DNA of 64,000 nt from an uncultured Acidobacteriota bacterium (GTDB lineage Bacteria; Acidobacteriota; Vicinamibacteria; Vicinamibacterales; Fen-181): NCBI GenBank assembly GCA_963741715.1, contig CAVUJA010000002.1, positions 136,883 through 200,882 of the forward strand, given 5' to 3'. Positions 3,474 through 43,100 of this stretch are shown here, in pieces (the first letter of the stretch is position 1; every line of letters starts with the position of its first letter). Below the pieces are notes generated by a model, which saw nothing but the letters and a program-made list of their open reading frames with translations, ran no database searches and had not been told where the DNA came from. Both the position numbers and the translations under genes were made by a program.

Positions 3474-3618
3474 CACTAGCCACTACCCACTACCCACTAC
3501 CACTAGCCACTAGCCACTAACCACTAGCCACTAACCACTAGCCACTACCTACTAGCCACTACGCACTAGCCACTAGCCACTACGCACTAGCCACTAGCCA
3601 CTAGCCACCAGCCACTAC
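3474..3618. repeat. tandem heptamer array (CCACTAG)n, about 20 units
   Basis: Read directly: cactagc cactacc cactacc ... ccactag ccactag ccaccag ccactac. It fills the gap between the stop of the ATPase gene (3615-3617) and the region upstream of the permease start (3401). Period 7 puts TAG/TAA in all frames on both strands. Confidence 0.95.
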
Positions 3619-4559
3619 TCTTCCCCAACTGCCTTGGCGAACACGTCCTCGAGCGTGGGCACGCTCGGGCGGAGGTGGCGAACCTGCACCTTCTCCCGGT
3701 CGGCCATCGCGAACAGCGTGCGGGCGCCCTCGTCCGGCCCCACGAGCACGCGCAGGACTTCATCGTCCGTCTCGTGGCACTCGAACCCGGCGGCGGCGAG
3801 CGTGGCGGTAAAGGCCTGGCGGTCGCCCTTGATGCGCAGCTCGAACACCTGCTTGCGCGTGCCCTTCAGCGTGTCGATCGGCCCCTGCGCCACCACCTGG
3901 CCCTTGTCCAGCACGACGACGTTGGTGCAGGTGTATTCGACGTCGGGCAGGAGGTGCGAGGAGAGGATCAGGTTGATCTGCTTCTCGTACGCGAGGTCGC
4001 GCACCAGGTCGAGCATCTCGTCGCGGCCCTTGGGGTCCATCCCGTTGGTCGGCTCGTCGAGGAACAGCAGGTCGGGGTCGTGGACGAGCGCCTGCGCGAG
4101 CTTGATGCGCTGCTTCATCCCGGTCGAATAGGTTTCGAGGTTGCGGTAGCGCGCCTCGCCCAGGCCGACGTAGTAGAGCACCTCGTGCGCGCGCTGCATC
4201 GCGTCGCTGGCCGGCAGGCCCGCGAGCTGGCCGCAGTAGGCGACGAACGACACCGCGTTCATGCCCGGGATGTGGCCGTCGGTCTCGGGCATGTACCCGA
4301 TGCGCCGGCGGATGTCGAGGGGGGATTTGGCGACATCGAGGCCGAAGACGCTCATGCGGCCGGAGGTGGGCACCAGGAAGCCGAGCAGCGACTTGAGCAT
4401 CGTGCTCTTGCCGGCGCCGTTGGGCCCCAGCAGGCCGGTGGCCCCGCCGTGGAACGCCGCGGTGACGTCGCGGAGCGCGGCGCTTTTTCCGTAGGCGACG
4501 CTGACCGCCTCGAGGGCAACGACGGGGGTGGTGTCCGGCTCGGCCATCTCACTGTCCAA
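3615..4559 (-). CDS. ABC transporter ATP-binding protein
   Basis: Walker A GPNGAGKST, signature YSTGMKQR, Walker B LLFLDEP, H-loop SSHLL; 314 aa. Confidence 0.9.
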   Translation of the reverse strand: MDSEMAEPDTTPVVALEAVSVAYGKSAALRDVTAAFHGGATGLLGPNGAGKSTMLKSLLGFLVPTSGRMSVFGLDVAKSPLDIRRRIGYMPETDGHIPGMNAVSFVAYCGQLAGLPASDAMQRAHEVLYYVGLGEARYRNLETYSTGMKQRIKLAQALVHDPDLLFLDEPTNGMDPKGRDEMLDLVRDLAYEKQINLILSSHLLPDVEYTCTNVVVLDKGQVVAQGPIDTLKGTRKQVFELRIKGDRQAFTATLAAAGFECHETDDEVLRVLVGPDEGARTLFAMADREKVQVRHLRPSVPTLEDVFAKAVGEE

Positions 4560-4586
4560 TTACGAGCTTCCGACGGATTTCGTTCG

Positions 4587-4624
4587 CACTGCCTGCCTAC
4601 TGCCGACTGCCGACTGCCTACTAC
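4587..4624. repeat. tandem heptamer array (TGCCGAC/TGCCTAC)n, about 5 units
   Basis: cactgcc tgcctac tgccgac tgccgac tgcctac tac. It overlaps the stop codon (4621-4623) of the HD-domain gene. Confidence 0.85.
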
Positions 4625-5193
4625 AACGATCCCTTCAGCCCCAGCGCCTCGGCCTGCTCGCGCATGCCGGCAATCACGTTGGCGATGTGCTCGGCCAGCG
4701 GCAGCCCCAGTTCCTCGGCGCCCTTCTTGAGGTCTTCGCGGCTGACGGCGCGCGCGAAGGCCTTGTCCTTCATCCGCTTGACGACCGAGGAGGCCTCGAG
4801 GTCGAGGACGCTCTTCGACGGCCGGACGAGGGAGGCGGCGGTGACGAAGCCGGCCATCTCGTCGCAGGCGAACAGCGTGTGCTCCAGCCGGGTGTCGCGC
4901 GGCGTGTTCGTGTGGTCGGCGTGGGACAGGACGGCCTTCACCACGAACTCGGGGTAGCCGTGCTCGCGCAGGAAGTCGGCGCCCCGGAACGGGTGGTTCT
5001 CGAGGGTCGGGTAGCGCTCGTAGTCGAAGTCGTGGAGCAGCGCCACGGCGCCCCATTCCTCCTCGTTCTCGCCGAACTTCCGCGCGTAGAAGCGGACGGC
5101 CGCCTCGACGGCGAGCGCGTGCTTCCGCAACGCGTCGCTCTGGGTCCACTCGCACAGCAACGACCAGGCCGATTCACGTGACAGCATGGACAT
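4621..5193 (-). CDS. HD-domain metal-dependent phosphohydrolase
   Basis: 190 aa. HD-superfamily signature residues (ALLHDFDY ... LSHADH) in a short all-helical protein. Confidence 0.8.
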   Translation of the reverse strand: MSMLSRESAWSLLCEWTQSDALRKHALAVEAAVRFYARKFGENEEEWGAVALLHDFDYERYPTLENHPFRGADFLREHGYPEFVVKAVLSHADHTNTPRDTRLEHTLFACDEMAGFVTAASLVRPSKSVLDLEASSVVKRMKDKAFARAVSREDLKKGAEELGLPLAEHIANVIAGMREQAEALGLKGSL

Positions 5194-5235
5194 AGGATTC
5201 AGGATTCAGGAGTCGGGATTCGGGATTCAGTTCAG
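5194..5235. repeat. tandem heptamer array (AGGATTC/AGGAGTC/GGGATTC)n, 6 units
   Basis: aggattc aggattc aggagtc gggattc gggattc agttcag. It begins at the nucleotide next to the ATG (5193) of the HD gene. Confidence 0.9.
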
Positions 5236-5345
5236 TCGCAATGCGTGAACGGCCGGTCGCGAGGGCCGCGGTCGGGCCGACTCCCTCCGCAGCTCCGTCG
5301 GCGGCGCCGGCAAAAGCCGCGGCGGCCGGAGAGGGCCGAAAGCCG

Positions 5346-5900
5346 CCGGGGTCGCCCGGTTCGATCCGTGTGCGTGATCGGGCTCAACCCGGCTCCTCCC
5401 CAACGCCTGCCGCGGCGTTTTGCCGTCTGATGCGTGCCACGGCTTGCCGAAGTCGCCGCTTCGCGAGCCGGCCCACCCGCGTCCGGCGTCATCCCGCTGC
5501 CAGCGGCCGCCCTGTGGCGTGCGTCTGGGGCCCCAGACTTCGCGCCCTCCGGCGCTCGGCCACAAGGGCGCGGCGGCCTGCTCCGAAGCGAATCGTCCGG
5601 CGAGGCGCCCGCGCTCGGCGCGCCTCACAGCGGCGGCCGTCATTCAGCACCCACGCCCGTCCGTCCGCGCCTGTCGTGGCGGCCGCTGCCTGCACTCGAC
5701 CGGCTGGCGGGGGCACCCGGCGAAGCGAACATGCGAGCAGTGCCGTCGGTCGATGCACAACCACGCACCGCAGGTTCAGACTCGCCCTTGAGGCGCTCGT
5801 GCCAGGCCGAATGGCTCAACGAAACCCACCGACCGAGGATGCGTGGTTCGGCACTGTCGAGCGTGAGCGGAGGCGGGTGCCCCCGCCGGCCGGTCGCGTC
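5346..5900. repeat. mosaic GC-rich dispersed repeat, copy A
   Basis: Blocks such as ggggtcgcccggt..gtgtgcgtgatcgggctcaacccggctcctcccca.cgcctgc.gcggcgttttgccgtctga, gcgaacatgcgagcagtgccg.cggtcga.tgca and ggttcggcactgtcgagcgtgagcg recur as the reverse complement at 28490-28880. A 30-nt block (gcggcctgctccgaagcg..cgtccggcga) recurs at 17748-17780. Confidence 0.8.
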
Positions 5901-6029
5901 GGCCGCGGTGACGGACCCGGCGCGCCCAGCGTATCACTGCCGTCTGCCCGGCATGATATATTCGGCGACCAGTTCTCGCCAACGACTGAATCGGGCCGGA
6001 CCGCTGGCCGTCGCCGCACGGAGGTCACC

Positions 6030-7106
6030 GTGATCGCTGTCCTGTTCGTCGCGCTCGCCATCCTCACGCTCGTGTTCGTCGCCGTCTGGGTGCTCGAGGT
6101 CCGGAAGAACCCGGACACGCCCGATCCGGGCGCGCCCAACGCGGAGCGCGTCGCGGTCGGCTTCTTCGCGAACTTCTTCGACGCCCTCGGCATCGGCAGC
6201 TTCGCGACCAGCACCACCTACTTCCGCATGCGGAAGCTGGTGCGCGACGAACTCATCCCCGGCACCCTCAACGTCGGCCACTGCCTGCCCACGGTCACGC
6301 AGGCGTTCATCGGCATCGCGGTCATCGCCGTCGAGCCGCTGATGCTCGTCCTGATGATCGCCACCGCCGTGGCGGGAGCCTGGGTCGGCGCCGGGGTCGT
6401 CTCGCGGATGCCGCGCCGGGCGATCCAGATCGGCATGGGGATCGCGCTGCTGGTGGCCGCCGGCTTCCTGTTCGCCAAGGCGGCGCGGATCATGCCTTCC
6501 GACGCCGTGACGGTGGGGCCGCAGCAGGCGGTGATTCGGGCGGAGGGCGCCCCCACGGCCGGCGCGGTCGCGACGCTCGCCGCCGGCACCCCGCTCGAAC
6601 TGCTGACCGCCGGCCACGCGTGGTCCCGCGTCAGCGCCGCCGGGGCGACGCCGGAGGCGCCGAGGATCGAGGGCTATATCCAGACCGCCGCGGCGACGGG
6701 GATCGTCCTCGGCGTCACCGGCATCAAGTTGGGCCTGGCGCTGGCGGGCAGCTTCTTCCTCGGCACCATCATGCCGCTCGGCATCGGCTACTACGCGCCG
6801 TGCATGGTGCTCATCGCGCTGCTCGGCATGAGCCCGAGCGCGGCCTTCCCCATCATGATGGGCGCCTGCGCGTTCCTGATGCCCGTCGCGGGGGCGGAGT
6901 TCGTCTGGAAGAAGAAGTACAGCCTGCGCGCCTCCGCGGGCCTGGCCGCCGGCGGCATCTTCGGCTCGGCGCTCGCGCTGCTCGTCGTGAAGAGCCTCAA
7001 TCTCCGCTACGTGATGTGGCTGGTGACGATCGTCATCATCTACACGGCGGTGATGCTGCTGATGGCCGCGGCGCGGGAGAAGAGGGCGGCGGCAGGCGTC
7101 GCCTAG
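6030..7106 (+). CDS. TauE/SafE (DUF81) family anion permease with a central soluble insert
   Basis: GTG 6030 is preceded by GGAGG (6019-6023). The upstream 263 codons of track ORF 5241..7106 lie in the repeat element and are Arg/Ala/Pro junk. Two TM-rich halves (FFANFFDALGIGSFATST..., GTIMPLGIGYYAPCMVLIALLGMS...) are typical of the family. Confidence 0.7.
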   Translation: MIAVLFVALAILTLVFVAVWVLEVRKNPDTPDPGAPNAERVAVGFFANFFDALGIGSFATSTTYFRMRKLVRDELIPGTLNVGHCLPTVTQAFIGIAVIAVEPLMLVLMIATAVAGAWVGAGVVSRMPRRAIQIGMGIALLVAAGFLFAKAARIMPSDAVTVGPQQAVIRAEGAPTAGAVATLAAGTPLELLTAGHAWSRVSAAGATPEAPRIEGYIQTAAATGIVLGVTGIKLGLALAGSFFLGTIMPLGIGYYAPCMVLIALLGMSPSAAFPIMMGACAFLMPVAGAEFVWKKKYSLRASAGLAAGGIFGSALALLVVKSLNLRYVMWLVTIVIIYTAVMLLMAAAREKRAAAGVA

Positions 7107-10519: not shown

Positions 10520-11671
10520 CTACAGCTTCAGCGCCGCGTCCGCGTTGAGGCTCCAGTCGGCGGTAACGCCCGCGCGGTAGCGGCGCAGGCCGGCGGCGGC
10601 GATCATCGCCGCGTTGTCGGTCGAGAGGGCAAGCGTCGGGAGGAAGACGGGCAGGCTCAGCTCCGCGCCGCGGGCCGCGGCGTCCTCGCGCAGCCGGCTG
10701 TTGGCCGACACGCCGCCCGCGATCCCCACGCTCTTCGCGCCGTGGCGCCAGGCGGCCTCGAACAGCCGATCGACGAGCGTCTCGACGACCACGCGCTGGA
10801 AGCTGGCGCAGATGTCGGCGATCTCGGCGGGCGTGAACGGTGCGGGCGCCGCATCCGCCCCCGTCCCCTGTCCCTCGTGCCTCGCCCCTCGTCCCCCGTC
10901 CCTCGTCCCTCGTCCCTCGTTCCCTGTCCCTCGCCCCTCGTCCCCAATTCCTCGGCCCTTGACGTACCGCGAAACCGCCGTCTTGATCCCGCTGAAGCTG
11001 AAGTCCAGCCGGCCGGCGAGGTCGGGCGCGTTGCGATCGCGGTGCGTGATGCGCGTCATGGGAAACGCCACCGCGCGGTCGTTGCCCTCGCGCGCCAGCT
11101 TGTCGATGATCGGCCCGCCCGGGTAGCCCAGCCCCAACAGCTTCGCCACCTTGTCGTACGCCTCGCCCGCCGCATCGTCCCGGGTGCGCGCGATCAGCCG
11201 ATAGACGCCAGCTTCCGGAACGAGATACAGGCTCGTGTGGCCGCCCGAAACGACGAGGACGACCGACGGAAGAGGAAGCGGGCCGTTGTGGAGGAAGAGC
11301 GACTCGATGTGGCCCGCGAGGTGGTGCACGGGGACGAGCGGCTTGCCGATGGACGCCGCAAACGACTTCGCGAACTGCAGGCCCACCAGCAGCGAGCCAA
11401 CCAGCCCAGGCCCCTGCGTCACCGCGACCGCGTCGATCCCCCGCGCGTCGATCCCGGCATCGAGCAGCGCCTTCTCGACGACCCCGCAGATGTCGCGGAC
11501 GTGCTGCCGCGACGCGAGTTCCGGAACCACGCCGCCCCACTCGCGGTGGATGTCCACCTGGGACGCGACCACGCTCGAGCGGATCTGCCACGGACGCGCC
11601 GCGTCATCGACTTCGGCCACCACGGCGGCGGCCGTTTCGTCGCACGAGCTCTCGATTCCCAGGATCTGCAT
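10520..11671 (-). CDS. tsaD: tRNA N6-adenosine threonylcarbamoyltransferase TsaD, with a repeat-encoded ~33-aa insertion
   Basis: Kae1/TsaD motifs GIESSCDET, HHLAGH, VSGGHTSL, DFSFSGIKTAV, GGVSANSRL, STDNAAMIA. 383 aa, about 40 longer than usual, because of GRGIGDEGRGTGNEGRGTRDGGRGARHEGQGTG. Confidence 0.92.
   Translation of the reverse strand: MQILGIESSCDETAAAVVAEVDDAARPWQIRSSVVASQVDIHREWGGVVPELASRQHVRDICGVVEKALLDAGIDARGIDAVAVTQGPGLVGSLLVGLQFAKSFAASIGKPLVPVHHLAGHIESLFLHNGPLPLPSVVLVVSGGHTSLYLVPEAGVYRLIARTRDDAAGEAYDKVAKLLGLGYPGGPIIDKLAREGNDRAVAFPMTRITHRDRNAPDLAGRLDFSFSGIKTAVSRYVKGRGIGDEGRGTGNEGRGTRDGGRGARHEGQGTGADAAPAPFTPAEIADICASFQRVVVETLVDRLFEAAWRHGAKSVGIAGGVSANSRLREDAAARGAELSLPVFLPTLALSTDNAAMIAAAGLRRYRAGVTADWSLNADAALKL
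10858..10955. repeat. tandem heptamer array (CCCTCGT)n, about 14 units, inside the tsaD coding sequence
   Basis: cccccgt cccctgt ccctcgt gcctcgc ccctcgt cccccgt ccctcgt ccctcgt ccctcgt tccctgt ccctcgc ccctcgt ccccaat tcctcgg. On the coding strand this is (ACGAGGG)n and is stop-free in every frame. Confidence 0.95.
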
Positions 11672-11691: not shown

Positions 11692-11742
11692 GTCAGTCGG
11701 CACTGCCTGTCAGTCGGGATTGGACATCAGTCGGAGCTCCGC
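11692..11742. repeat. 3 x 17-nt tandem repeat carrying (G/A)TCAGTCGG
   Basis: GTCAGTCGG at 11692 and 11709, ATCAGTCGG at 11726. CAGTCGG is the complement of the CCGACTG-type heptamer at 4587-4624. Lies between the tsaD start and the mtnA stop. Confidence 0.7.
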
Positions 11743-12806: not shown

Positions 12807-12821
12807 AGGGTGCGATCATAC

Positions 12822-12917
12822 AGGATTCAGGAGTCAGGATTCGGGATTCGGGACGGCGCAGACCCGCCGAATCCCACCTGGATCCCACTGACTCCCGACT
12901 CCCGGCTCCTGAATCCT
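12822..12917. repeat. inverted pair of heptamer arrays (AGGATTC-type arm and its complement) forming a hairpin
   Basis: Left arm aggattc aggagtc aggattc gggattc ggga (12822-12852). Right arm cgaatcc ...ctgactcc cgactcc cggctcc tgaatcc t (12868-12917). About 15-nt loop. Sits between the mtnA start (12806) and the cdd stop (12923). Confidence 0.9.
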
Positions 12918-13527: not shown

Positions 13528-14586
13528 TCACAGGACGCCTGGATGGGGCGCCTCGATGTCGGTGAATCGCACCATCCGTTGCTGCGCCTCGTCCCACAGC
13601 CGCAGGCGGACCAGGCGCAGGCTTCCGCGGAGCGTCAGCGGCGGAACCTCGTGGAACGCCGGCACGCGGTCCTGGCACTGCTGCAGGGCGTAGCTCGGAA
13701 TGCGCGGCTGGACGTGATGGATGTGGTGCAGGCCGATGCTGCCGGTGAACCACTGCAGCACCTTCGGCAGCTTGTAGTACGAACTGCCGGCCAGGGCCGC
13801 GCGCCACGGGTTCCACGCCTCGTGCCGGCTCCAATAGACGTCGTCGAACTGGTGCTGCACGTAGAACAGCCAGATCCCGGCCGCGCCGCCGAGCAGTCCA
13901 ACGGGCGCCGCCAGCAGGACGAAGTTTCGGAAGCCGAACGCCAGCACCGCCCCGGCGAGTAGGGCCGCGGCGCCCGCGTTGGTGAAATGCACGCTGAATC
14001 GCTCGCGGCGGCTCGCGTGTCGCGGGCAGAACCGGTGCTGGATGACAAAGACGAACACGGGACCGATGGCGAACATCACCAGCGGATTCCGGAAGGCTCG
14101 ATAGAAAAACCGCTGCAGGCGCGACGCCGCCAGGTACTCCTTGACCGTCAGCGTCCACACGTCGCCGACCCCGCGCCGGTCCAGGTCGCCGACGGTCGCG
14201 TGGTGCCGGACGTGCGCGCGCTGCCACCGCTCGAACGGGGTGAGGGTCAGCAGGCCCGTGATGTAGCCGACCACACGGTTGGCCCGGGCCGACGGAAACA
14301 GCGAGCCGTGACAGCAGTCGTGAAAGAGGATGAAGACCCTCACGGTCAGGCCGGCGGCGAGGACCGTCAGCCCGAGGGCCGCGGCCGGATGTCTGCGGAC
14401 CAGCCAGGCCATCGCCGCCCAGACGGCGACGTACGGGACGAGGGTTTCGATCAGTTGCCAGGTTGCGCGCCGCGTATCGGCTCGCGCGAACGCCGCAACC
14501 GCCGGGTACCAGTCGGGCCTCGCCCGGACGGGTGCCGCGCCCTCGTCGGCCGCCGAAATCGTCATCGGTGCCGTGGCTTCTTCCAT
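13528..14586 (-). CDS. membrane fatty-acid desaturase
   Basis: Three histidine boxes HDCCH, HVRHH, HHIHH, plus hydrophobic helices. The start is placed at ATG 14586 (MEEATAP...); the longer track ORF adds 69 unlikely codons. Confidence 0.85.
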   Translation of the reverse strand: MEEATAPMTISAADEGAAPVRARPDWYPAVAAFARADTRRATWQLIETLVPYVAVWAAMAWLVRRHPAAALGLTVLAAGLTVRVFILFHDCCHGSLFPSARANRVVGYITGLLTLTPFERWQRAHVRHHATVGDLDRRGVGDVWTLTVKEYLAASRLQRFFYRAFRNPLVMFAIGPVFVFVIQHRFCPRHASRRERFSVHFTNAGAAALLAGAVLAFGFRNFVLLAAPVGLLGGAAGIWLFYVQHQFDDVYWSRHEAWNPWRAALAGSSYYKLPKVLQWFTGSIGLHHIHHVQPRIPSYALQQCQDRVPAFHEVPPLTLRGSLRLVRLRLWDEAQQRMVRFTDIEAPHPGVL

Positions 14587-15670: not shown

Positions 15671-16008
15671 GATAACTGGATAACTGAAGAACTGGATAAC
15701 TGGATAACTGGATAACTGGATAACTGGATAACTGAACTGGATAACTGAAGAACTGGAGAGCTGGGGAACTGAGTGACGGCACAACTGCGCAATTGCGTGA
15801 CCGCGCAACTGCACAACTGACGCCGCTGCAGTACCGCGTGGCAGAACAGTTGGCGCGCGACTTGCCCCAGTTACCCGGTTGTCCAGTTGCCCAGTTACCC
15901 AGTTGCCCAGTTGCCCAGTCCTCCAGTCTCCCAGTTGCCCAGTTATCCAGTTGCCCAGTTGCCCAGTTGCCCAGTTGCCCAGTTTCCCAGTTCTCCAGTT
16001 CTCGAGTT
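15671..16008. repeat. inverted pair of octamer arrays: (GATAACTG-like)x19 then (CAGTTGCC-like)x20
   Basis: Left arm 15671-15819, unit NNNAACTG. 27-nt spacer. Right arm 15847-16008, unit CAGTTNNC. The arms are mutually complementary. The right arm abuts the nupC stop (16007-16009), and the left arm ends 17 nt before the PNP start. Confidence 0.95.
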
Positions 16009-17401
16009 ACAGCAAGAACCCCGCAATGGTCGCGGTCACGAAGTTCGCCAGCGTGCCGGCCAGCATCGCGCGGAAGCCGAGGCGCGCCAGGTCGTGGCGG
16101 CGGTTCGGCGCCAGCGCGCCGATGCCGCCGATCTGGATGCCGATCGAGCTGAAGTTGGCGAAGCCGCACAGCGCGAACGTGGCGATGGTGAACGACTTCA
16201 TGTCGATCTGCCCGAACAGCGGGCCGGCCGCGTGCAGCGCCGTCGCCCCCGAGTACTTGCCGAGTTCCGAATACGCGACGAACTCGTTCAGCACCATGCG
16301 CGTGCCGAGCAGGTTGCCGATGATCTGCGAGTCCTTCCAGGGCACGCCCATCGACCACGCCACCGGCGCGAACGCCCACCCGAGAATCTGCTGCAAGGTC
16401 AGCCCAACCAGGCCGAGGCACGCGTTGACCAGCGCGACCAGCGCGAGGAACGAGATGAGCATCGCGCCGACGTTCAGCGCCAGGTGCAGGCCCTCGCCGG
16501 TGCCGCGCCCCGCCGCGTCGATCACGTTCACGTCGGTCCTCGGCACGTCCAGCTTCACCGTCCCCATCGTCTTGGGCGAGTCGGTCTCGGGAACGAACAT
16601 CTTGGCCATCATCAGCGTGCCCGGCGCGGTCATGATGACCGCCGTCAGCAGGTGCTTGGCCTCGATGCCGAACAGGATGTAGGCCGCCATGATGCCGCCG
16701 GAGATGTGCGCCATCCCCGACGTCATCACCGTCATCAGCTCGGACTGCGTCATCTCGGGCAGGTAGGGACGGATGGTCAGCGGCGCCTCGGTCTGCCCCA
16801 TGAAGATGCTCGCGGCGACGTTCAGCGACTCGGCCCCGCTCGCCTTCATCACGCGGCGCATCAGGTACGCGAACCCGCGCACGACCAGCTGCATGACGCC
16901 GAAGTAGTAGAGGATGGCGAAGAGCGCCGCGATGAAGATGATGGTCGGCAGCACCTGGAAGGCGAAGATCGTCCCGTACTGCGCGCCGTCGGGCCCGAGG
17001 ACGGTGGTCATGATCTTCGGCCACGCCTTCTTGTCGCCGAGCGGCCCGAAGACGAACGACGAGCCGACGTCGGCAAACGCCAGCAGCTGCGTGATGCCGT
17101 CGCTCGCCTTCTGGAAGATCACCGAGCCCGCGTTGGTCTTCAGGACGCCGAGCGCGAAGAGGATCTGCAGGCCGAGGCCCCACGCGACGGTCTTCAGGTC
17201 GATCGCGCGCCGGTTGCTGGACATCAGGTAGGCGATCCCGAGGATCACCACCAGGCCGACCACCGCCTGCACGCGGGGCATGCCCCCGAACTTGGCGAGG
17301 AGGGCGGCGACGACGGCGATGACGATCGCGGCGCCGACGATGAGGAACTCGATCCGGCGGGAAGCGGCCGGGGCCACAGGTTTCGAGTCGGTTGAATTCA
17401 C
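16007..17401 (-). CDS. nupC: NupC/concentrative nucleoside transporter family permease
   Basis: Family-typical blocks GSSFVFG, FAFQVLPTIIF, ASIFMGQTEAPL, MTSGMAHISGG, ATFALCGFANFSSIGIQIGG. GTG 17401 with GAGGAG 5 nt upstream. Confidence 0.9.
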   Translation of the reverse strand: MNSTDSKPVAPAASRRIEFLIVGAAIVIAVVAALLAKFGGMPRVQAVVGLVVILGIAYLMSSNRRAIDLKTVAWGLGLQILFALGVLKTNAGSVIFQKASDGITQLLAFADVGSSFVFGPLGDKKAWPKIMTTVLGPDGAQYGTIFAFQVLPTIIFIAALFAILYYFGVMQLVVRGFAYLMRRVMKASGAESLNVAASIFMGQTEAPLTIRPYLPEMTQSELMTVMTSGMAHISGGIMAAYILFGIEAKHLLTAVIMTAPGTLMMAKMFVPETDSPKTMGTVKLDVPRTDVNVIDAAGRGTGEGLHLALNVGAMLISFLALVALVNACLGLVGLTLQQILGWAFAPVAWSMGVPWKDSQIIGNLLGTRMVLNEFVAYSELGKYSGATALHAAGPLFGQIDMKSFTIATFALCGFANFSSIGIQIGGIGALAPNRRHDLARLGFRAMLAGTLANFVTATIAGFLL

Positions 17402-17816: not shown

Positions 17817-19121
17817 TTACCTCACTTCCTCGATGACCAACGGAAGCAGCGTCGGCGGCTCGTCGCCGATCTCGATCGCGCGCGCGAGGAGCTCGGTCGC
17901 CGGGGCCAGGTCCGCCTCGCGCCGGTAGTGCAGCTCGACGATCGGGTCGCCGGCGTTCAGCCGCTCTCCCGGATGCGCCTTCACGATCACCCCCACCGCC
18001 GGGTCCACCACGTCGTCCACCTTGCTGCGCCCGGCGCCGAGCGCGAGGCTCGCGCGGCCGACGAGTTCCGCATCCAGCACGGACAGGTAGCCAGAACGCG
18101 AAGCGCGGACGATGTGGCGGTTCGGGACCGAGGGCATCAGGCCGTAGTCGTCCACGGTGCGCGGGTCGCCGCCCTGCTGCGCGACGATCTCGCGCCACTT
18201 CTCCACGCCCGCGCCCGACGCGAGCGCGCGGCGCACCTGCGCGTCGGCGTCCTCGGAGGTCGCCGCGAGGCCGGCCGCCAGGACCATCCGCGCGGCGAGC
18301 AGCACCGACAGGGCCTCGAGGTCTTTCGGACCGCGCCCCTTCAGCGTCTCGACGCACTCGATCACCTCGAGCGCGTTGCCCACCGCGTGGCCCAGCGGCG
18401 CGTCCATCGCGGTGATGAACGCCTCGGTCTTCACGCCCGAGAGGTTCCCGGTGTCCACGAGCGACCGGGCCAGTTTGCGCGAGTCGTCCACCGTCTTCAT
18501 GAACGCGCCGCGGCCCGTCTTGACGTCGAGCACCAGCGCGTCAATCCCCTCGGCGATCTTCTTGCTCATGATCGAGGCGGTGATGAGCGGGATGCTCTCG
18601 ACGGTGCCGGTCACGTCGCGCAGCGCGTAGAGCTTCTTGTCGGCGGGCGCAATCTGGGCGGTCTGGCCGAGCATCGCCACGCCGGTCTTTCGGAGCGCCG
18701 CCTTCAGCTCGTCGAGGGAGAGGTCCACGCGAAAGCCGGCAATCGACTGCAGCTTGTCGAGGGTGCCGCCGGTGTGGCCGAGGCCGCGGCCCGACATCAT
18801 CGGCACCTTCACCCCGCACGCCGCCGCCAGCGGGGCGAGGATCAGCGAAGATTTGTCGCCCACGCCGCCCGTGCTGTGCTTGTCCACCTTCACGCCGGGA
18901 ATGGCCGACAGGTCCACCTTGATCCCCGACCGCACCATGGCGCTGGTCAGCCAGGCCGTCTCTTCGGCCGTCATCCCCTTGAGGACAATCGCCATGAGGA
19001 GCGCGGAGGCCTGGTAATCGGGGAAGGAACCGTCGGTGACGCCGGCGACGAACGACTCGATGGCCTCTCGGGAGAGCGCCGCGCCGTCCCGCTTGGCGCG
19101 GATGATGTCCGTGGCACGCAT
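17817..19121 (-). CDS. deoA: thymidine / pyrimidine-nucleoside phosphorylase
   Basis: 434 aa. Hallmarks: DKHSTGGVGDK, SGRGLGHTGGTLDKL, TASIMSKK, C-terminal alpha/beta domain. Confidence 0.92.
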   Translation of the reverse strand: MRATDIIRAKRDGAALSREAIESFVAGVTDGSFPDYQASALLMAIVLKGMTAEETAWLTSAMVRSGIKVDLSAIPGVKVDKHSTGGVGDKSSLILAPLAAACGVKVPMMSGRGLGHTGGTLDKLQSIAGFRVDLSLDELKAALRKTGVAMLGQTAQIAPADKKLYALRDVTGTVESIPLITASIMSKKIAEGIDALVLDVKTGRGAFMKTVDDSRKLARSLVDTGNLSGVKTEAFITAMDAPLGHAVGNALEVIECVETLKGRGPKDLEALSVLLAARMVLAAGLAATSEDADAQVRRALASGAGVEKWREIVAQQGGDPRTVDDYGLMPSVPNRHIVRASRSGYLSVLDAELVGRASLALGAGRSKVDDVVDPAVGVIVKAHPGERLNAGDPIVELHYRREADLAPATELLARAIEIGDEPPTLLPLVIEEVR

Positions 19122-19137
19122 AAGGGCGAAGTATACG

Positions 19138-19221
19138 TCAGGATTCAGGAGTCAGGATTCGGGAGTCAGGAGCAGCACGATTCAGGAGTCAGGATTCAGG
19201 AGTCAGGATTCGGGAGTCAGT
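19138..19221. repeat. tandem heptamer array (AGGATTC/AGGAGTC/GGGAGTC)n, about 11 units
   Basis: tcaggattc aggagtc aggattc gggagtc aggagca gcacgattc aggagtc aggattc aggagtc aggattc gggagtc ag. Starts 17 nt from the deoA ATG. Confidence 0.95.
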
Positions 19222-19223
19222 TG

Positions 19224-19857
19224 GTCGCACCGAATCCCGGCTCCCGCGCTTGTCAGCCTCACAAATGGGTCGTTCACCGCCGCCAAGGGAGACACAGGGA
19301 CGGCGGTTTCGATCACTCCCCACTCGGCATGGGCTCCTGGCGGCGGGTGGATCTCCTACGCGCCGACAGGTATCGGACCGGACAACATTCTCGCGCCAAC
19401 CTACAACACGCCGATCGTCGCCTCGGACCCCGCGGACCAACGGCAGGCGATCGTTCTCTTCACCCGCACATTCGCCGCCAACGAGGGTCAGACCTTGATC
19501 ATGAAGCTGTGGGCCGACGACACAGCCTTCATGCGGGTCGACGGCGGAGCGTGGGTCCCCACGGCGCATACGTGGGCCCAGAGCGTCTGCGAGACCGATC
19601 CGACCTCCTGTTCAGCCAATGAGTACTCGCTTGGCAGTTTCGACCTGTTGTTCACCGGCGATCACACGCTTGAGATCCGCGCATACCAGATCGGGACCGC
19701 AACGACCTACCCTAACCCCACCTTCTTCGGGGACAACAACAGCAACCCGTTCGGCATCAAATACGAGGGCAGTGTGGTTCCAGACGGCGGTGCAACTCTG
19801 ATGCTGCTCGGCGGCGCGCTGGCGGGCTTGGCGGCCCTCAGGAGACTCCGGGGCTAA
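19224..19857 (+). CDS. PEP-CTERM-like (VPDGG variant) sorting-signal protein, apparently 5'-truncated / without signal peptide
   Basis: The C-terminus VPDGGATLMLLGGALAGLAALRRLRG has the motif / TM helix / basic tail architecture. The open frame extends upstream through the heptamer array to 19036. There is no ATG/GTG/TTG between 19117 and the Leu (TTG) before IMKLWADD, and no signal peptide, so the 5' boundary is uncertain. Confidence 0.5.
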
Positions 19858-19860
19858 GCT

Positions 19861-21339: not shown

Positions 21340-21376
21340 GGGCTAAGCTGCCGCGTTTCGTACAGAATGTCCTTCC

Positions 21377-21406
21377 AGGGCCGGAGCGATCCGGCCCTTC
21401 GTTTGT
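21377..21406 (+). terminator. rho-independent terminator, displaced from its gene by the IS
   Basis: AGGGCCGGA-gcga-TCCGGCCCT (9-bp stem, GCGA loop) followed by tcgtttgt. It lies 28 nt after the right target duplication, which contains the stop codon of the gene at 19224-19857. Confidence 0.7.
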
Positions 21407-21418
21407 ACGCGGGTGCCG

Positions 21419-21908
21419 TTCGAGCGCACCGAGGAGCACCCCGGCGGGCACAGCATCCCCGAGCTTGCCGCGGCGCTGCTGCGCGCGCTGCGCGACATCG
21501 CCGGCTACATCGGCAGCCAGGAGCCGGCGCGCCTGCCGACGATCTTCGACAACATGGCGTCGGCCATGTCGCGGTTGTCGCCCGACTTCGTGATGGAGTT
21601 GGTGGAGGAAGGCCAGGACGACGGCAGCGCCCACGCGGGCCTGATCAAGGAGATCTCCAGCCGCGCGTCACCGAGACGACGATCGCCCAGTTCATCGCCC
21701 GCTCCGTGGCGCGCGAACGCGCGTGCACCGCGCGGCTCGCGGACGCGTTCCGCGCCCTCGCCGCCACGCCGGCCCGGCAGGAAGCCGCCGTCAGCCTGGC
21801 GCACCAGGAGCTGGCCGGCTCGCCGATGGGCGAGGAGGCGAGCCGACAAGGCCTGGGTGTCGGACACCTACAACCGCGAGCTCTCGTCCGCGCAGGCGCG
21901 CGCCGGCG
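21419..21908 (+). pseudogene. degenerate duplicate of an internal segment of the HEAT-repeat gene (copy of ~25219-25752)
   Basis: Nucleotide-level match to 25219-25752 (FERTE.HPGGHSIPELAAALLRALRDIA.YIG.QEPARLPTIFDNMASA.SRLSPDFVMELVEEGQDD...). It carries a 2-bp insertion near 21667 and a 47-bp deletion near 21846. It has no start and no end of its own. Confidence 0.85.
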
Positions 21909-24517: not shown

Positions 24518-24580
24518 CAGGAGTCGGATTCAGCAGTCGGTGGTCCCCCCCGAATCCTGCCCCCCGACTCCTGAATCCTG
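24518..24580. repeat. hairpin built from heptamer-type units (CAGGAGTCGGATTC... / ...GAATCC..CCGACTCCTG)
   Basis: caggagtcgg (24518-24527) pairs perfectly with ccgactcctg (24564-24573). ggattc (24526-24531) pairs with gaatcc (24552-24557). Lies 40 nt upstream of the HEAT-gene start. Confidence 0.85.
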
Positions 24581-26823: not shown

Positions 26824-26851
26824 GATTCGGGAGTCGGGATTCGGGATTCAG
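26822..26851. repeat. tandem heptamer array (AGGATTC/GGGAGTC/GGGATTC), 4 units
   Basis: aggattc gggagtc gggattc gggattc ag. Starts inside the TAG stop (26821-26823) of the HEAT gene. Confidence 0.9.
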
Positions 26852-28334: not shown

Positions 28335-28383
28335 AGGGATCGGGGATCAGGGATCGGGGATCGGGGATCAGGGATCAGGGACT
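28335..28383. repeat. tandem heptamer array (RGGGATC)n, 7 units
   Basis: agggatc ggggatc agggatc ggggatc ggggatc agggatc agggact. Starts 9 nt after the HD-GYP stop. Confidence 0.95.
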
Positions 28384-36890: not shown

Positions 36891-36925
36891 AGGACTCTCG
36901 ACTCTCGACTCGTGACTCTTGACAG
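36891..36925. repeat. tandem heptamer array (TCGACTC-type), 5 units, upstream flank of vapC
   Basis: aggactc tcgactc tcgactc gtgactc ttgacag. Ends 9 nt before ATG 36935. Confidence 0.9.
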
Positions 36926-36934: not shown

Positions 36935-37303
36935 ATGCTCAATCTTGACACCCACGTCCTGGTCGCGCTCCTCGAGGGCTCGCTGAAGCCCGCCGAGGAG
37001 GCGCTGGTCGCCGACGAGGAACTGGCGATCTCGGACATCGTGCTCTGGGAGCTGGCGAAGCTCGTCCAACTCGGCCGGCTCGAGATGGATCTCGACAGCC
37101 CGGCCTTCCGGCGCGCGCTCGACCACATCACCGTCGTCCCGATGTCGGCGGACATCGCCAGCCTGAGCACCCAGCTGGATTTCAAGTCCGACCCGGCAGC
37201 CGAACTCATCGCCGCCACCAGCCTGTCCGCCGGCATGCCGCTCCTCACCAGGGACCGGCGCATCCTGCGCTCCAAGGTCGTTCCCTTCGCCCGGCGCGCT
37301 TGA
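36935..37303 (+). CDS. vapC: PIN-domain ribonuclease toxin (VapC family), no adjacent antitoxin gene
   Basis: MLNLDTHVLVALL..., ISDIVLWELAKL, ...DPAAELIAATSLSAGMPLLTRDRRI: the acidic residues and layout of a PIN/VapC protein. 122 aa. Confidence 0.85.
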   Translation: MLNLDTHVLVALLEGSLKPAEEALVADEELAISDIVLWELAKLVQLGRLEMDLDSPAFRRALDHITVVPMSADIASLSTQLDFKSDPAAELIAATSLSAGMPLLTRDRRILRSKVVPFARRA

Positions 37304-37404
37304 CGCTCGACTCTCGACTCCTGACCCTCGACTCCAGACTCTTGACTGTTGACTCTGGGCTGTTGACTCCGGACTCTTGACTCTTGACTCTCGACTCTTG
37401 GTGT
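37300..37404. repeat. tandem heptamer array (TCGACTC/TTGACTC)n, 15 units, downstream flank of vapC
   Basis: ttgacgc tcgactc tcgactc ctgaccc tcgactc cagactc ttgactg ttgactc tgggctg ttgactc cggactc ttgactc ttgactc tcgactc ttggtgt. The first unit contains the vapC TGA stop. Confidence 0.95.
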
Positions 37405-39587: not shown

Positions 39588-39602
39588 TGGTACCAACCTT
39601 GC
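39588..39602 (+). promoter_or_regulatory. sigma-54 promoter TGGTAC-N5-TTGCT
   Basis: cTGGTACcaaccTTGCTc, 80 nt upstream of ATG 39682. Confidence 0.7.
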
Positions 39603-39681
39603 TCTGCCGCAGGTCATTGTCGCGACCGTTCGCCATGTCATCAGTAGCACTCGCGCCAGCCGCGAGGGAGGGTTAGAAGCC

Positions 39682-40411: not shown

Positions 40412-40587
40412 GCCTGGTTGCGGGGCTGGTCATGCGCCCTTTTCAACCAGGGATCTTCAGCGCGGAAGAAAGTCGGCGTCACAGGTGTTTTCGGGCCCTT
40501 GTCGGCGGCGAGTCGAGGCGCAGTTCACGGGCTTATGTGCTTGATTCAAAGGCACATATCGGGAGCGCGGTGGCGGATGGCTCAACG

Positions 40588-40602
40588 TGGTACTGGCTTT
40601 GC
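40588..40602 (+). promoter_or_regulatory. sigma-54 promoter TGGTAC-N5-TTGCT
   Basis: gTGGTACtggctTTGCTg, 100 nt upstream of ATG 40702. Confidence 0.7.
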
Positions 40603-40701
40603 TGATGCGTTACGTAACTCGATGTCGATTTCGACACCGTTTGCCCCTTGCGGCGACATTCAGATCCTGACGGATTTGAGGATAAAGGGGAGGAGGCAGA
40701 G

Positions 40702-41340: not shown

Positions 41341-41373
41341 TCGGCGGCCTTCGAACCACCTCCCCATTCTCAC

Positions 41374-41405
41374 CCCCCGGCGTCCAACGGGCGCCGGGGG
41401 TTTTT
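41374..41405 (+). terminator. rho-independent terminator
   Basis: CCCCCGGCG-tccaacggg-CGCCGGGGG followed by TTTTT, 34 nt after the stop at 41340. Confidence 0.75.
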
Positions 41406-41454
41406 CGTCTTCGGCAGGTTCGTCCCCCGCGGTATCCTCTAGAATCGTTCAGGA

Positions 41455-42378
41455 ATGCAGGACGGCCGGGCTTCGGCCGAGAATAGACAGAGTATGCCGC
41501 GCTACGCGAAGCACGTCCTCGCGCTCCTGCTGGTGGCCCTGGGCTTCGGCCTCCTCTACCGGAACGTCATCTTCAAGCTGGTCCACGACTGGGGCACCGA
41601 CGACAACTACTCCCACGGTTTTCTGATCGTCCCCATCGCGCTCTACTTCGTCTGGGAGCGCCGGGCCAGACTGGCCGAGGCGGTGCCGCGGCAGTCGGTG
41701 CTCGGCCTGGTGGTGGTGGCGTTGAGCGTGGTCGTCCTGGGCGCGGGAGTCCTGGGCGCCGAACTGTTCCTCACGCGCGTCTCGATGCTGGGCGTGCTGG
41801 CCGGTGCCGTGCTGTTCATCTACGGCTGGCGGCACTTGCGGATACTGGCCTTTCCGCTCGCCTTCCTCGTGCTGATGATCCCGATCCCCGCGATCATCTT
41901 CAACCAGATCGCCTTCCCGCTGCAGCTGCTGGCATCCCGGTTCGGCGAGGTCGTCCTGACGCTCGTCGGGGTCCCCGTGCTGCGCGAGGGCAACGTGATC
42001 ACGCTGAGCAACACGAGCCTCGAAGTTGCCGAGGCCTGCAGCGGCATCCGGTCCCTCATCTCGCTGCTCACCCTGGCCATCGTGTACGGCTACCTCGTCG
42101 ACCGCAGGAACTGGACGCGCGTGGCGCTGGCGCTGGCGTCGATCCCGGTCGCAATCGTCGCCAACGGCTTCCGGGTCGCGGGCACCGGCATCGCGGCCCA
42201 TTTCTTCGGCCCCGAAGCTGCGCAGGGGTTCTTTCACGAGTTCTCCGGCTGGCTGGTCTTCGTCTTCGCCTTCGTCATGCTGTTCGCCGTCCAAAGGGCC
42301 ATCGCATGGGTGGCTCCCGACATGAGCAGCAGGGCGGCCGCCGTGCTCGCGCCGGCCGCGCCCAAGGAGCAGCCATGA
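41455..42378 (+). CDS. xrtA: exosortase (XrtA/EpsH type)
   Basis: Polytopic membrane protein with exosortase signature residues: Cys in EACSGIRS, Arg in ANGFRVAG, His in HEFSGW. Conserved N-terminal W..DDNYSHGFLI. Immediately followed by epsI. Confidence 0.88.
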   Translation: MQDGRASAENRQSMPRYAKHVLALLLVALGFGLLYRNVIFKLVHDWGTDDNYSHGFLIVPIALYFVWERRARLAEAVPRQSVLGLVVVALSVVVLGAGVLGAELFLTRVSMLGVLAGAVLFIYGWRHLRILAFPLAFLVLMIPIPAIIFNQIAFPLQLLASRFGEVVLTLVGVPVLREGNVITLSNTSLEVAEACSGIRSLISLLTLAIVYGYLVDRRNWTRVALALASIPVAIVANGFRVAGTGIAAHFFGPEAAQGFFHEFSGWLVFVFAFVMLFAVQRAIAWVAPDMSSRAAAVLAPAAPKEQP

Positions 42379-43052
42379 TTGCCCGCGCGCTCGTCGTGTC
42401 TCTCGTGCTCGTCTCGGGCGCCGTCGTCATAGGCCGCGCGTCGAAGAGCGAGCCGGTTCCGGCGCGCGAATCCCTCGCCACGTTCCCCATGGAGATCGCC
42501 GAGTGGCGCGGCCAGTCGGCCGACCGCTTCGATCAGCAGATTCTGGCGGTGCTGGGCGTGGACGAGTACATCAACCGCGTCTACGTGGCCCCCACGAAGG
42601 TGCAGGTCGGCTTGTACGTCGGCTACTATGGGAGCCAGCGCGAGGGGGATACGATGCACTCGCCGCTGAACTGCCTCCCCGGCGCCGGGTGGCAGCCGGT
42701 CAGACAGGCGAGGGTGACCATTCCCGTCGCGACCGCCATGGATGCGGCCACGGGCCGGCCGGTGAACCAGCGCGAGATCGAGGTGAACCGCTTCGTGATC
42801 CAGCGAGGCCTGGACAAGCAGGTGGTGATCTACTGGTACCAGAGCCACGGCCGCGTGGTGGCGAGCGAATACTGGGGCAAGATCTACACGGTGGTGGACG
42901 CCATCCGGTTGAACCGGACCGACGCGGCCATGGTCCGCGTGATTTGCCCGGTGGGCGGCGGCGAACCGGCCGACGTGACGCGCGCCGAGGATGCCGCCAC
43001 GGCGTTCACGAAAGCCCTATTCCCGCTGCTCGGTCGGTATCTGCCTGACTGA
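42375..43052 (+). CDS. epsI: exosortase-associated EpsI family protein
   Basis: ATG 42375 overlaps the xrtA stop (ATGA). Single N-terminal TM helix, then F(P)MEIAEWRGQ ... DEYINRVY ... YVGYYGSQREGDTMHSPLNCLPGAGW ... YWYQSHGR, typical of EpsI. Confidence 0.85.
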   Translation: MIARALVVSLVLVSGAVVIGRASKSEPVPARESLATFPMEIAEWRGQSADRFDQQILAVLGVDEYINRVYVAPTKVQVGLYVGYYGSQREGDTMHSPLNCLPGAGWQPVRQARVTIPVATAMDAATGRPVNQREIEVNRFVIQRGLDKQVVIYWYQSHGRVVASEYWGKIYTVVDAIRLNRTDAAMVRVICPVGGGEPADVTRAEDAATAFTKALFPLLGRYLPD

Positions 43053-43054
43053 CG

Positions 43055-43100
43055 TAGGATTCGGGAGTCAGGATTCGGGAGTCAGTAGGATTCGGGATTG
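43055..43100. repeat. tandem heptamer array (AGGATTC/GGGAGTC), about 6 units
   Basis: taggattc gggagtc aggattc gggagtc agtaggattc gggattg. Starts 3 nt after the epsI stop. It is the last array seen in the window. Confidence 0.9.

Follow-up and report, generated by a model that had tools for sequence, protein, structure and literature searches.

Tandem heptamer arrays beside gene ends in a Vicinamibacterales lineage of the Acidobacteriota

To our knowledge, tandem arrays of heptanucleotide units have been known in bacteria since 1990, and their origin and function are unexplained. Mazel and colleagues reportedly described in that year the short tandemly repeated repetitive (STRR) heptamers of heterocystous cyanobacteria, whose units are said to be CCCCAGT, TTGGTCA and CAACAGT. 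The present analysis deals with similar arrays in a stretch of 64,000 nucleotides, hereafter the window, from an uncultured soil bacterium of the phylum Acidobacteriota, order Vicinamibacterales (lineage Fen-181; assembly GCA_963741715.1, contig CAVUJA010000002.1, positions 136,883 to 200,882 of the forward strand). These arrays belong to the bacterial long simple sequence repeats with units of 5-11 bp, alongside the cyanobacterial STRRs and the GGGANTN arrays of Xanthomonas, and the finding is a dense and unit-diverse instance in a new phylum, not a new kind of element. A sequence-only reading of the window had likened them to the STRR repeats, which is apt, and had set them apart from CRISPR and from repetitive extragenic palindromic (REP) elements. 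Both distinctions stand, as head-to-tail units of 7-8 nt without spacers differ from CRISPR repeats of 23-50 nt with unique spacers, and the arms of the paired forms are tandem arrays, not single palindromes.

The closest described arrays are the (GGGAATC)n and (GGGANTN)n repeats of high-GC Xanthomonas, reported together with GGGGA(C/T)T in Nostoc (Rehm et al. 2015, PLoS One; PMC4692102), and for this reason the statement of the sequence-only reading that no high-GC lineage had been described was wrong. The Xanthomonas heptamer arrays comprise 2-26 units, are about 90% intergenic and lie within some 50 bp of the ends of open reading frames (ORFs), on average 28 nt from the nearer ORF; their G-rich strand is sense past stops and antisense ahead of starts (PMC4692102). 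There are 70-75 convergent inverted pairs per genome, and 186 GGGAATC arrays in Xanthomonas campestris. Relatives carry arrays in the same spacers with varying length and sequence, no functional class of genes is preferred, and most arrays are transcribed (PMC4692102). The formation of G-quadruplexes, with four units favoured, is among the features ascribed to these repeats. Polymerase slippage was the hypothesis given for the arrays of both Xanthomonas and Nostoc, and Mrázek 2007, as cited in the same paper, is the source for an over-representation of heptamers in large genomes above 60% G+C, as well as for the idea that the active-site footprint of the polymerase favours 7-nt slippage (PMC4692102). 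Another heptamer, TAACTGA, forms direct repeats by start codons in Beggiatoaceae, cyanobacteria and Bacteroidetes (MacGregor 2015; PMC4679880). No description of arrays of this sort in Acidobacteriota or Vicinamibacterales was found in the literature searched.

In the window, which has a G+C content of 68%, arrays were sought with Tandem Repeats Finder (TRF, score of 30 or above) and with a second, separate detector that required at least three units with at most one mismatch per unit. TRF returned period-7 arrays at 3474-3617 (20.7 copies), 4593-4622, 5194-5230, 10858-10945, 12821-12853, 12890-12909, 19137-19220, 24546-24573, 26823-26849, 28335-28381, 36893-36923, 37299-37400 and 43056-43085, and period-8 arrays at 15671-15771 and 15866-16000. 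The second detector found 18 period-7 and 3 period-8 segments, all of them below 43.1 kb, with only minimal three-copy chance matches at periods 5-6 and no array in the window at periods 9-11. The composite pattern RGGAKTCRGGAKTC matches 29 times in the window against 0.44 expected, far above shuffled controls. The window arrays are real and far beyond chance. Every locus listed in the sequence-only reading holds period-7 or period-8 repeats by TRF and our own detector; its 17-nt relative at 11692-11742 exists, though it amounts to three exact CCGACTGA copies, and the units that it saw at 24518-24540 are present as three degenerate ones, while the TRF array (CGGCCTG)n at 3413-3448 was missing from its list. 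It had seen no array after 43.1 kb, and neither TRF nor the second detector gives a period-7 or period-8 array there, where about 6.8 would be expected from the upstream density (P about 0.001 by a Poisson estimate). In that stretch lie three TPR genes, a polysaccharide cluster whose G+C content is lower, and spacers with REP-like GC hairpins. The arrays of the window are the following:

3413-3448, minus strand: (CGGCCTG)n as written on the plus strand, about 4.6 copies, ending 12 nt upstream of the ABC-2 permease start (3401); TRF.
3474-3618, minus strand: (CCACTAG)n, in sense (CTAGTGG)n, 20.7 copies; the TAG of the first unit is the stop of the ABC ATPase gene (3615-3617), with an orthologue alignment that runs to the last residue (310/310); TRF.
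4587-4624, minus strand: (TGCCGAC/CTGCCTA)n, in sense TAG-(TAGGCAG/TCGGCAG)n, about 4.3 copies, beginning at the stop of the HD-domain gene (4621-4623) and followed by a conserved leader of 40 nt and the ABC start at 4547; TRF.
5194-5235, no strand assigned: TAGGATTC-(RGGAKTC)n-AGT, the whole spacer from the putative HD start (5193, minus strand) to a plus-strand ORF (5241); on the sense strand of the HD gene, (GAATCCT/GAATCCC)n directly before the ATG.
10858-10955, minus strand: (CCCTCGT)n, in sense (ACGAGGG)n, about 13-14 copies, in frame inside tsaD; TRF.
11692-11742, minus strand: the three exact copies mentioned above, at 17-nt spacing, located between the stop of the IF-2B-family gene and the start of tsaD; only weakly related to the arrays and not in TRF.
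12822-12917, minus strand: inverted array pair in the spacer from cdd to the IF-2B-family gene, a predicted hairpin on the mRNA; the G-rich arm TAGGATTC(RGGAGYC)n (12917-12868) starts 4 nt past the cdd stop, and the C-rich arm (GAATCCY/GACTCCT)n (12852-12822) ends 15 nt before the IF-2B-family start.
15671-16008, minus strand: two inverted period-8 arrays in the nupC-PNP spacer, in sense (CAACTGGG)n from the TAA stop of nupC and (CCAGTTAT)n ending 16 nt before the PNP start; TRF.
19137-19245, minus strand: (AGGATTC/AGGAGTC)n, in sense (GAATCCT/GACTCCT)n, 11.7 copies, ending 15 nt upstream of the thymidine phosphorylase start (19121), with a short complementary arm at 19232-19245; TRF.
24518-24580, plus strand: short degenerate inverted pair, (AGGAGTC GGATTC ...) / (GAATCCT ... 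GACTCCT GAATCCT), 38 nt upstream of the HEAT-repeat start (24619).
26821-26851, plus strand: TAGGATTC GGGAGTC GGGATTC GGGATTC AGT, in which TAG ends the HEAT-repeat gene; the sense strand is the G-rich one, with a G-quadruplex (G4)-type motif.
28335-28383, plus strand: (RGGGATC)n, 6.7 copies, 8 nt past the TAA that ends the HD_5 gene; the sense strand is again the G-rich one, with a G4-type motif.
36891-36925, plus strand: (TCGACTC)n, 4.4 copies, whose end lies about 10 nt ahead of the start of a PIN-domain gene (36935).
37299-37404, plus strand: (TTGACTC/TCGACTC)n, 14.6 copies; the first unit, TTGACGC, contains the TGA (37301-37303) that ends the PIN gene; RNA folding predicts no Watson-Crick structure in this array.
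43055-43100, plus strand: TAGGATTC GGGAGTC AGGATTC GGGAGTC AGT AGGATTC GGGATTG in the DUF3485-TPR spacer, starting 2 nt past the TGA stop of the DUF3485 (EpsI-like) gene and ending 27 nt before the TPR start.

To place these arrays in their lineage, 80 loci around the thymidine phosphorylase gene (pdp) were compared, taken from species-representative genomes and labelled L001 onward (L008 is the same as L001, and L009 the same as L002). Over 918 kb of Acidobacteriota loci, period 7 accounts for 125 arrays, period 8 for 42 and periods 9 and 20 for 23 each, and periods 4-6 for none; 586 kb from other phyla hold three of period 7 and one of period 8. The density in the Acidobacteriota loci is about 0.18 arrays per kb, 23-29% of the spacers being occupied in array-bearing loci, and the chromosomes of the relatives measure 5.4-7.0 Mb. 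More than 100 distinct canonical units occur, some of them common to several loci and genomes, such as ACTAGCC, present at 8 loci in 4 genomes; the median copy number is 4.8 in a distribution truncated by the detection threshold. The period is therefore what is fixed, at 7 and less often at 8, and not the sequence of the unit. No Rfam family matches the arrays. They are a trait of the Vicinamibacterales lineage, confined to one clade, and their presence is all-or-none per genome: L009, L028, L034, L012, L038 and L048 are array-free despite having the same operon, those of L009 (OY969603) and L034 (OY970174) being complete chromosomes. A further set of relatives, drawn from JGI metagenomes by way of the exosortase gene, came to 517 kb, for the most part in short contigs and at 50-75% identity; it contained only 7 arrays, too sparse for replication, and the pdp-based loci were split into two clades as a substitute for independent replication. 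As for other repeats in the set, the close relative L001/L008 carries long arrays in like spacers, at 4538-4769, 14469-14563, 16189-16340 and 18425-19009, which include a 20-nt unit (GTCGGGACTGACGATGAAGG) in up to 11.6 copies and a 47-nt unit in 12.4 copies; period 20, with its 23 arrays, is the fourth commonest of the lineage. A Gemmataceae contig (L033, 7598-7719) holds an inverted heptamer pair, TGGTGAG / ACCACTC.

The position of the arrays is maintained between genomes while their units change. In orthologous spacers the array always lies past the stop codon and before a conserved leader of about 45 nt that precedes the next gene. At the ABC stop, related TAGTGGC, TAGGCAG and TAGGCGG arrays stand at the same codon in L005, L006, L007 and L062, and at the HD start the units are CCTGAAT, CCTGAGC or CCCGAAG depending on the genome, with C-rich arrays adjoining the same codon in L005-L008. 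Such a gradual change in place argues for inheritance with concerted evolution, not for repeated insertion, the same spacers being occupied in related genomes by arrays of changing unit sequence. Some sister genomes have lost the arrays completely, among them at least one close relative, L009: two units (GAGTCCC GAGAATCC) survive as a relic ahead of its HD gene, near 17995, where the clade has C-rich arrays. Three of its spacers measure 27, 39 and 129 nt, against 361, 216 and 76 nt in the window. The deposited HD ORF of L009 runs through the relic and has 211 residues instead of about 190.

With regard to the genes, boundaries in the left half of the window were set by alignment to the array-free relative L009 (7.04-Mb chromosome), and those of the related loci by our own caller, based on the G+C content of third codon positions (GC3). 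Read in the direction of transcription, eight window arrays come after a stop codon, starting 0-8 nt from it, and in five of them the stop triplet lies inside the first unit: TAG-TGG(CTAGTGG)n, TAG-(TAGGCAG)n, TAA-CTCGAG(AACTGGGC)n, T-AGGATTC... and T-TGA-CGC(TCGACTC)n. Orthologue alignments place the boundary stops quoted in the sequence-only reading (3615-3617, 4621-4623, 16007-16009, 26821-26823 and 37301-37303) in or beside the first repeat unit, and its boundaries 43052/43055 and 5193/5194 correspond to an array 2 nt past a stop and to one that adjoins a putative start. Each of these proteins aligns to its very last residue, so no coding sequence has been lost to the arrays. Arrays ahead of start codons end 10-16 nt away, a distance that leaves room for a ribosome-binding site, and with zero gap in the case of the HD gene. 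The idea that the arrays sit exactly on gene boundaries is only partly right: abutment to stops does exceed what geometry gives, but placement at boundaries is partly a consequence of compact ancestral spacers, as indicated by the 27-39 nt of L009 against 216-361 nt in the window, and the array at 10858-10955 lies inside tsaD. Nor do the arrays prefer spacers between co-directional genes; the occupied fraction of spacers in array-bearing loci is 23% for co-directional, 29% for convergent and 29% for divergent ones, and the apparent preference reflects the base rate of spacer types. Regarding stop usage, 73% of the array-abutted genes end in TAG or TAA, compared with 47% of the remaining genes of these loci and 34% of the genes in relatives free of arrays, and among the stops abutted by arrays (window and L003-L065) the largest relative excess is that of TAA.

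Four window loci contain inverted pairs, namely the cdd-IF2B and nupC-PNP spacers and the regions upstream of the HEAT gene and of pdp. The whole nupC-PNP spacer, 352 nt, is predicted to fold into one hairpin (-185.6 kcal/mol, z = -12, with 0/100 shuffles as stable), and stable RNA folds are also predicted for the cdd-IF2B spacer (-57.9 kcal/mol, z = -3.7) and for the region upstream of HEAT (-43.8 kcal/mol, z = -3.4), the pair upstream of pdp giving only a short stem. Single arrays show no more predicted structure than shuffled sequence, and most of them less. Neighbouring arrays are reverse-complementary 8 times in 28, as compared with 25 of 472 distant pairs (P = 5e-5), none of the 28 being direct copies, and the arms of paired spacers are complementary inside each genome even though their units differ from one genome to another. 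Other signals were sought in the arrays. Insulation of translation through stops in all frames, one of the roles proposed at first, receives no support, as stop triplets occur in 20 of 60 sense-strand units with 19.6 expected from composition. Tandem Shine-Dalgarno (SD) mimicry by the G-rich units finds no support either, with SD-like words in 13 of 60 units versus 10.4 expected (P = 0.2), and a G4-type motif is found in only 4-5 of about 16 window arrays, which speaks against the G-quadruplex as a common denominator. The motif G3N1-7 x4 is restricted to the window arrays at 10.9, 15.9, 26.8 and 28.3 kb. No intrinsic terminators or promoters above background, and no U-tract terminators, were detected at the arrays.

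The array in tsaD (window 10520-11671, minus strand) shows that coding sequence can also be occupied. The segment 10858-10955, which holds G4-type motifs, encodes a low-complexity insertion of 33 residues (GDEGRGTGNEGRG...) in a variable loop of the protein; a tblastn comparison with an array-free orthologue leaves a gap of 33 residues at this point, and the TsaD alignment agrees. In-frame heptamer arrays with differing repeats interrupt the TsaD loop in at least six genomes (L004, L005, L006, L011, L026 and L046), adding 20-48 low-complexity residues, and a second insertion site exists near residue 77 in L005, L006 and L046. Their presence inside an essential gene limits how unstable the arrays can be.

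On balance, the account that we favour, with moderate confidence, is that these arrays are microsatellites which arise by slippage and template switching and persist only at sites that tolerate them, their structural effects on mRNA being a by-product. Under it the arrays are tolerated, not required, and act at the DNA level. They would originate and change in length by slipped-strand replication; loops of at least 5 nt escape MutS-type mismatch repair in E. coli. The complementary arms would be copied and homogenised by intrastrand template switching at quasi-palindromes. Selection would then purge damaging arrays, and the sites left would be the permissive ones, a few bases past a stop codon and before the leader or ribosome-binding site, together with tolerant protein loops when the number of units keeps the reading frame. 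Because they lie inside operons, the arrays are presumably transcribed, and in the transcripts paired arrays would form long register-tolerant hairpins and single arrays unstructured G-rich or C-rich tracts. Either form could alter mRNA decay, translational coupling or termination in the manner of REP elements, as a secondary effect and not as the cause of the arrays. Slippage and roles in mRNA structure, both put forward in the sequence-only reading, are still the leading ideas. The same anatomy in Xanthomonas and Nostoc provides a precedent (PMC4692102).

Several observations weigh against slippage with tolerance as a sufficient explanation. It offers no account of the sharp preference for 7 over 5 or 6, nor of the all-or-none distribution among genomes. 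Placement was tested on 85 co-directional spacers, with genes called by the GC3-based method and start codons chosen as conservatively as possible; 32 of the 85 arrays start within 3 nt of the stop when 13.3 are expected under uniform placement, a figure that becomes 22.1 once 15 nt are set aside for ribosome binding (P = 4e-4), and among spacers with at least 30 nt of slack the figure is 14 of 53 versus 2.5 expected. This excess is partly trivial because the conserved leader of the downstream gene leaves few free bases beside the stop, and the P values are optimistic because orthologous spacers are not independent. The ratio of TAG or TAA to TGA is 43:16 in array-abutted genes versus 210:240 in the other genes (odds ratio 3.1), a bias present in both clades (odds ratios 3.5 and 2.8). 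In the clade of the window the G-rich strand is sense in 24 of 27 arrays after stops (24:3), and the C-rich strand in 16 of 20 before starts (16:4); the more distant clade gives 17:13, which is not significant. Neither the stop-codon bias nor the strand asymmetry is trivial. Occupancy is also uneven, with arrays in the nupC-PNP spacer of 16/43 genomes and in the cdd-IF2B spacer of 19/39, recurring over deep divergence (56-92% pdp identity), and rarely in the neighbouring PNP-cdd (1/38) and pdp-nupC (4/44) spacers. Finally, the RGGAKTC arrays have polar ends, with TAGGATTC at the start (5 matches versus 0.29 expected) and GGGAKTCAGT at the finish (5 versus 0.2), which points to copying between loci or to a directional process.

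Some of these observations would find a place if the arrays were selected cis-acting RNA modules, in which paired hairpins or G-quadruplexes past stops set the expression ratios within operons, as do REP elements and bacterial interspersed mosaic elements (BIMEs) in E. coli. Such modules might bar the way to 3'-5' exonucleases, cause terminating ribosomes to uncouple or pause, or act as partial transcription terminators, and their tandem units would confer register tolerance. According to Liang, Rudd and Deutscher, REP near stop codons reportedly affected translation in E. coli in a study of 2015. The strand asymmetry of the clade of the window (24:3 after stops, 4:16 before starts), the abutment to stops above geometric expectation, the recurrent occupancy of the nupC-PNP and cdd-IF2B spacers in relatives at 56-92% pdp identity and the very stable predicted hairpins (z = -12, -3.7 and -3.4) all agree with it, as does the transcription of most such repeats in Xanthomonas (PMC4692102). 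The complementarity of arms within each genome, despite units that differ between genomes, speaks for it as well, but template switching can yield this without selection. Moreover, the same operons are array-free in close relatives (L009, and largely L006), and there is free variation in the sequence and length of the unit, in copy number and in whether arrays are paired or single. Folding predictions give most single arrays less structure than their shuffled controls, a G4-type motif is present in only about a third of the window arrays, U-tract terminators are missing, the asymmetry is not significant in the more distant clade (17:13), and arrays are also found within the coding loop of tsaD. 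For these reasons we regard a selected RNA function as a possible but rather unlikely origin of the arrays.

The enrichment of TAG and TAA stops beside arrays could also reflect a dispersed non-autonomous element, similar to miniature inverted-repeat transposable elements or REPINs, that enters at TA or TAG sites, concentrated in stop codons in a genome of 68% G+C, and then grows by slippage. The conserved polar ends of the RGGAKTC family (TAGGATTC ... GGGAKTCAGT), the units common to several loci and genomes, such as ACTAGCC (8 loci in 4 genomes), and the TA at both outer ends of some pairs (window 12.8 kb and 15.7-16.0 kb; L007) would fit an element of this type. Its TA flanks are inconsistent, however, being missing in L003, L011 and L027, more than 100 unrelated units cannot be one element, and the gradual change of orthologous arrays in place indicates inheritance. 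No transposase or REP-associated tyrosine transposase (RAYT) gene was seen beside the arrays, the sole DDE transposase gene (19950-21311) being of an ordinary insertion sequence (IS) type and unlinked to them, and no Y1-transposase domain was found among the window ORFs scanned against Pfam; a mobile origin is thus very improbable. A fixed period with varying sequence, together with the all-or-none presence per genome that suggests a trans-acting factor, would on the other hand suit multivalent platforms for a lineage-specific nucleic-acid binder (CsrA-, S1- or Csp-like, or a DNA-binding protein with a 7-8 nt register) that regulates many operons. Each RGGAKTC unit contains a GGA motif, the window octamer TAACTGGA resembles TAACTGA, and a protein platform has been proposed for the TAACTGA repeats of Beggiatoaceae (PMC4679880). 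Nevertheless, more than 100 different units are beyond what a sequence-specific binder can recognise, SD-like words show no excess over composition, and no candidate gene was identified, so that this reading can hardly be expected to hold. As to artefacts of long-read metagenome assembly or sequencing, many of the related genomes are long-read metagenome-assembled genomes (MAGs; MFD isolates), and an acyltransferase gene of the window is split over two frames, which could be a sequencing error. Yet independent Illumina assemblies of relatives carry the arrays (L046, assembled with SPAdes and with 11 arrays in 15 kb, L016, L032, L037, L026 and L017), the arrays respect reading frames and stop codons, and the differences between genomes are orderly and inherited, all of which makes an artefact extremely improbable. 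Mobile element, protein platform and artefact jointly retain a small probability. It is quite improbable that a trans-acting system specific to Vicinamibacterales, an enzyme or binder with a 7-8 nt register, both produces and uses the arrays, which would then not be passive microsatellites; such a system would seed repeats at TA-containing stops, copy them with polar ends and keep their arms complementary. If it existed, register-tolerant intercistronic hairpins would tune operon polarity genome-wide, and the array-free L009 would have lost the system.

The closest homologues of pdp (17817-19121, minus strand) are in Vicinamibacterales and other Acidobacteriota MAGs. The minus strand carries pdp, nupC, PNP, a fatty-acid desaturase gene, cdd, the IF-2B-family gene and tsaD, and farther on the HD, ABC ATPase and ABC-2 permease genes; HEAT and HD_5 are the plus-strand genes of the aligned left half, and elsewhere in the window there are genes for an exosortase, DUF3485, PEP-CTERM proteins, TPR proteins, a PIN toxin, HepT/MNT pairs and a DDE transposase. 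The plus-strand ORF at 5241-6030 reaches about 790 nt further upstream of the conserved TauE domain than in L002, with a coding signal weaker than that of the TauE part, and could be an N-terminal extension or non-coding DNA. The DDE_Tnp_1 transposase gene at 19950-21311, for which relatives L001 and L002 have no counterpart at that position, is followed at 21419-21831 by short fragments similar to the HEAT-repeat protein of 24619-26823, which suggests an insertion sequence beside a gene remnant (19950-21831). At 60703-62114 (plus strand), two overlapping ORFs in different frames match the N- and C-terminal parts of Pfam Acyl_transf_3, suggesting a frameshifted acyltransferase gene or a sequencing error. 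The G+C content falls to 0.59-0.63 at 58000-64000, over an array-free cluster of glycosyltransferase, acyltransferase and sugar-epimerase genes that may be a horizontally acquired polysaccharide locus. The spacers of the three TPR genes have no heptamer arrays and instead hold REP-like GC-rich hairpins (GGGGCGGGCCTTCAGGCCCGCC and variants) at about 45416-45459, 45532-45549 and 47833-47854; similar hairpins are also found in the nupC-PNP spacers of L005 and L046.

The lineage offers good material for comparative work, with about one spacer in four occupied and dozens of genomes at graded distances. Array-rich and array-free sisters share operons, the change of units can be traced between orthologues, and paired and single forms stand side by side. 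Comparison of array-rich with array-free Vicinamibacterales could reveal a trans-acting factor, or a repair or replication defect, behind the 7-nt preference. The excess of arrays that start at stop codons and the preference for TAG and TAA, for which no published counterpart was found, are testable leads. There are also practical consequences, as arrays mislead gene callers, for instance in the HD start of L009 extended through the relic, and break short-read assemblies.

When compared with known systems, REP elements, BIMEs and REPINs are the nearest analogy for how the paired arrays could work, since they are intercistronic hairpin-forming repeats, often near stops, that can stabilise upstream mRNA; they differ in that each is one imperfect palindrome and not a tandem array, has a conserved GTAG head and is moved by RAYT transposases. 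The cyanobacterial STRRs are likewise intergenic tandem heptamers with many loci per genome, but they belong to another phylum and have other units, and a few fixed STRR sequences contrast with the high unit diversity found here. The window octamer CCCAGTTG shares CCCAGT with STRR1, whose unit is said to be CCCCAGT. The TAACTGA repeats resemble the arrays as intergenic heptamers a few nucleotides from starts, patchy over phyla and with a proposed post-transcriptional role, and differ as a single fixed unit on the sense strand upstream of starts (PMC4679880); nearest to them is the octamer TAACTGGA at 15671-15771, which is antisense to the downstream PNP and one arm of a hairpin. The pervasive tandem repeats of Borgs (Schoelmerich et al. 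2023; PMC9879509) are also fast-evolving and both intergenic and coding, the genic ones giving disordered segments, and they differ in residing on archaeal extrachromosomal elements; the abstract speaks of no heptamer preference. Long simple sequence repeats of 5-11 bp, or LSSR(5-11), which PMC4692102 cites from Mrázek, Guo and Shah (PNAS 2007), share with the arrays units of 7-8 bp, a dominance of heptamers and large high-GC genomes, and their hosts are non-pathogens, as is the case here; they form a statistical class and not a defined element.

The repeats of Xanthomonas come closest. They share tandem arrays of at least 14 bp with 7-nt units that fit GGGANTN, here GGGATTC/GGGAGTC at 5194, 12868, 19137, 26822 and 43055, as well as the location near ORF ends, the G-rich strand being sense past stops and the C-rich strand before starts in the clade of the window, and the frequent convergent inverted pairs. 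Shared as well are the changes of length and sequence within the same spacers of related species and the lack of any tie to gene function. Exact GGGAATC, of which the authors of the Xanthomonas study required at least one copy per array, has 12 matches in the window (7.8 expected), none of them within an array, and does occur in arrays of the relatives L007 and L003. Among the differences, the host phylum is Acidobacteriota, a minority of the arrays is G-quadruplex-capable by motif, and neither a link to TAG/TAA stops nor in-frame intragenic arrays form part of the Xanthomonas report. Unrelated units (CTAGTGG, TAGGCAG, TTGACTC, ACGAGGG) and 8-nt units coexist in this lineage, and its density of about 0.2 arrays per kb compares with about 0.04 GGGAATC arrays per kb in X. 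campestris, the latter figure being based on a genome of about 5 Mb.

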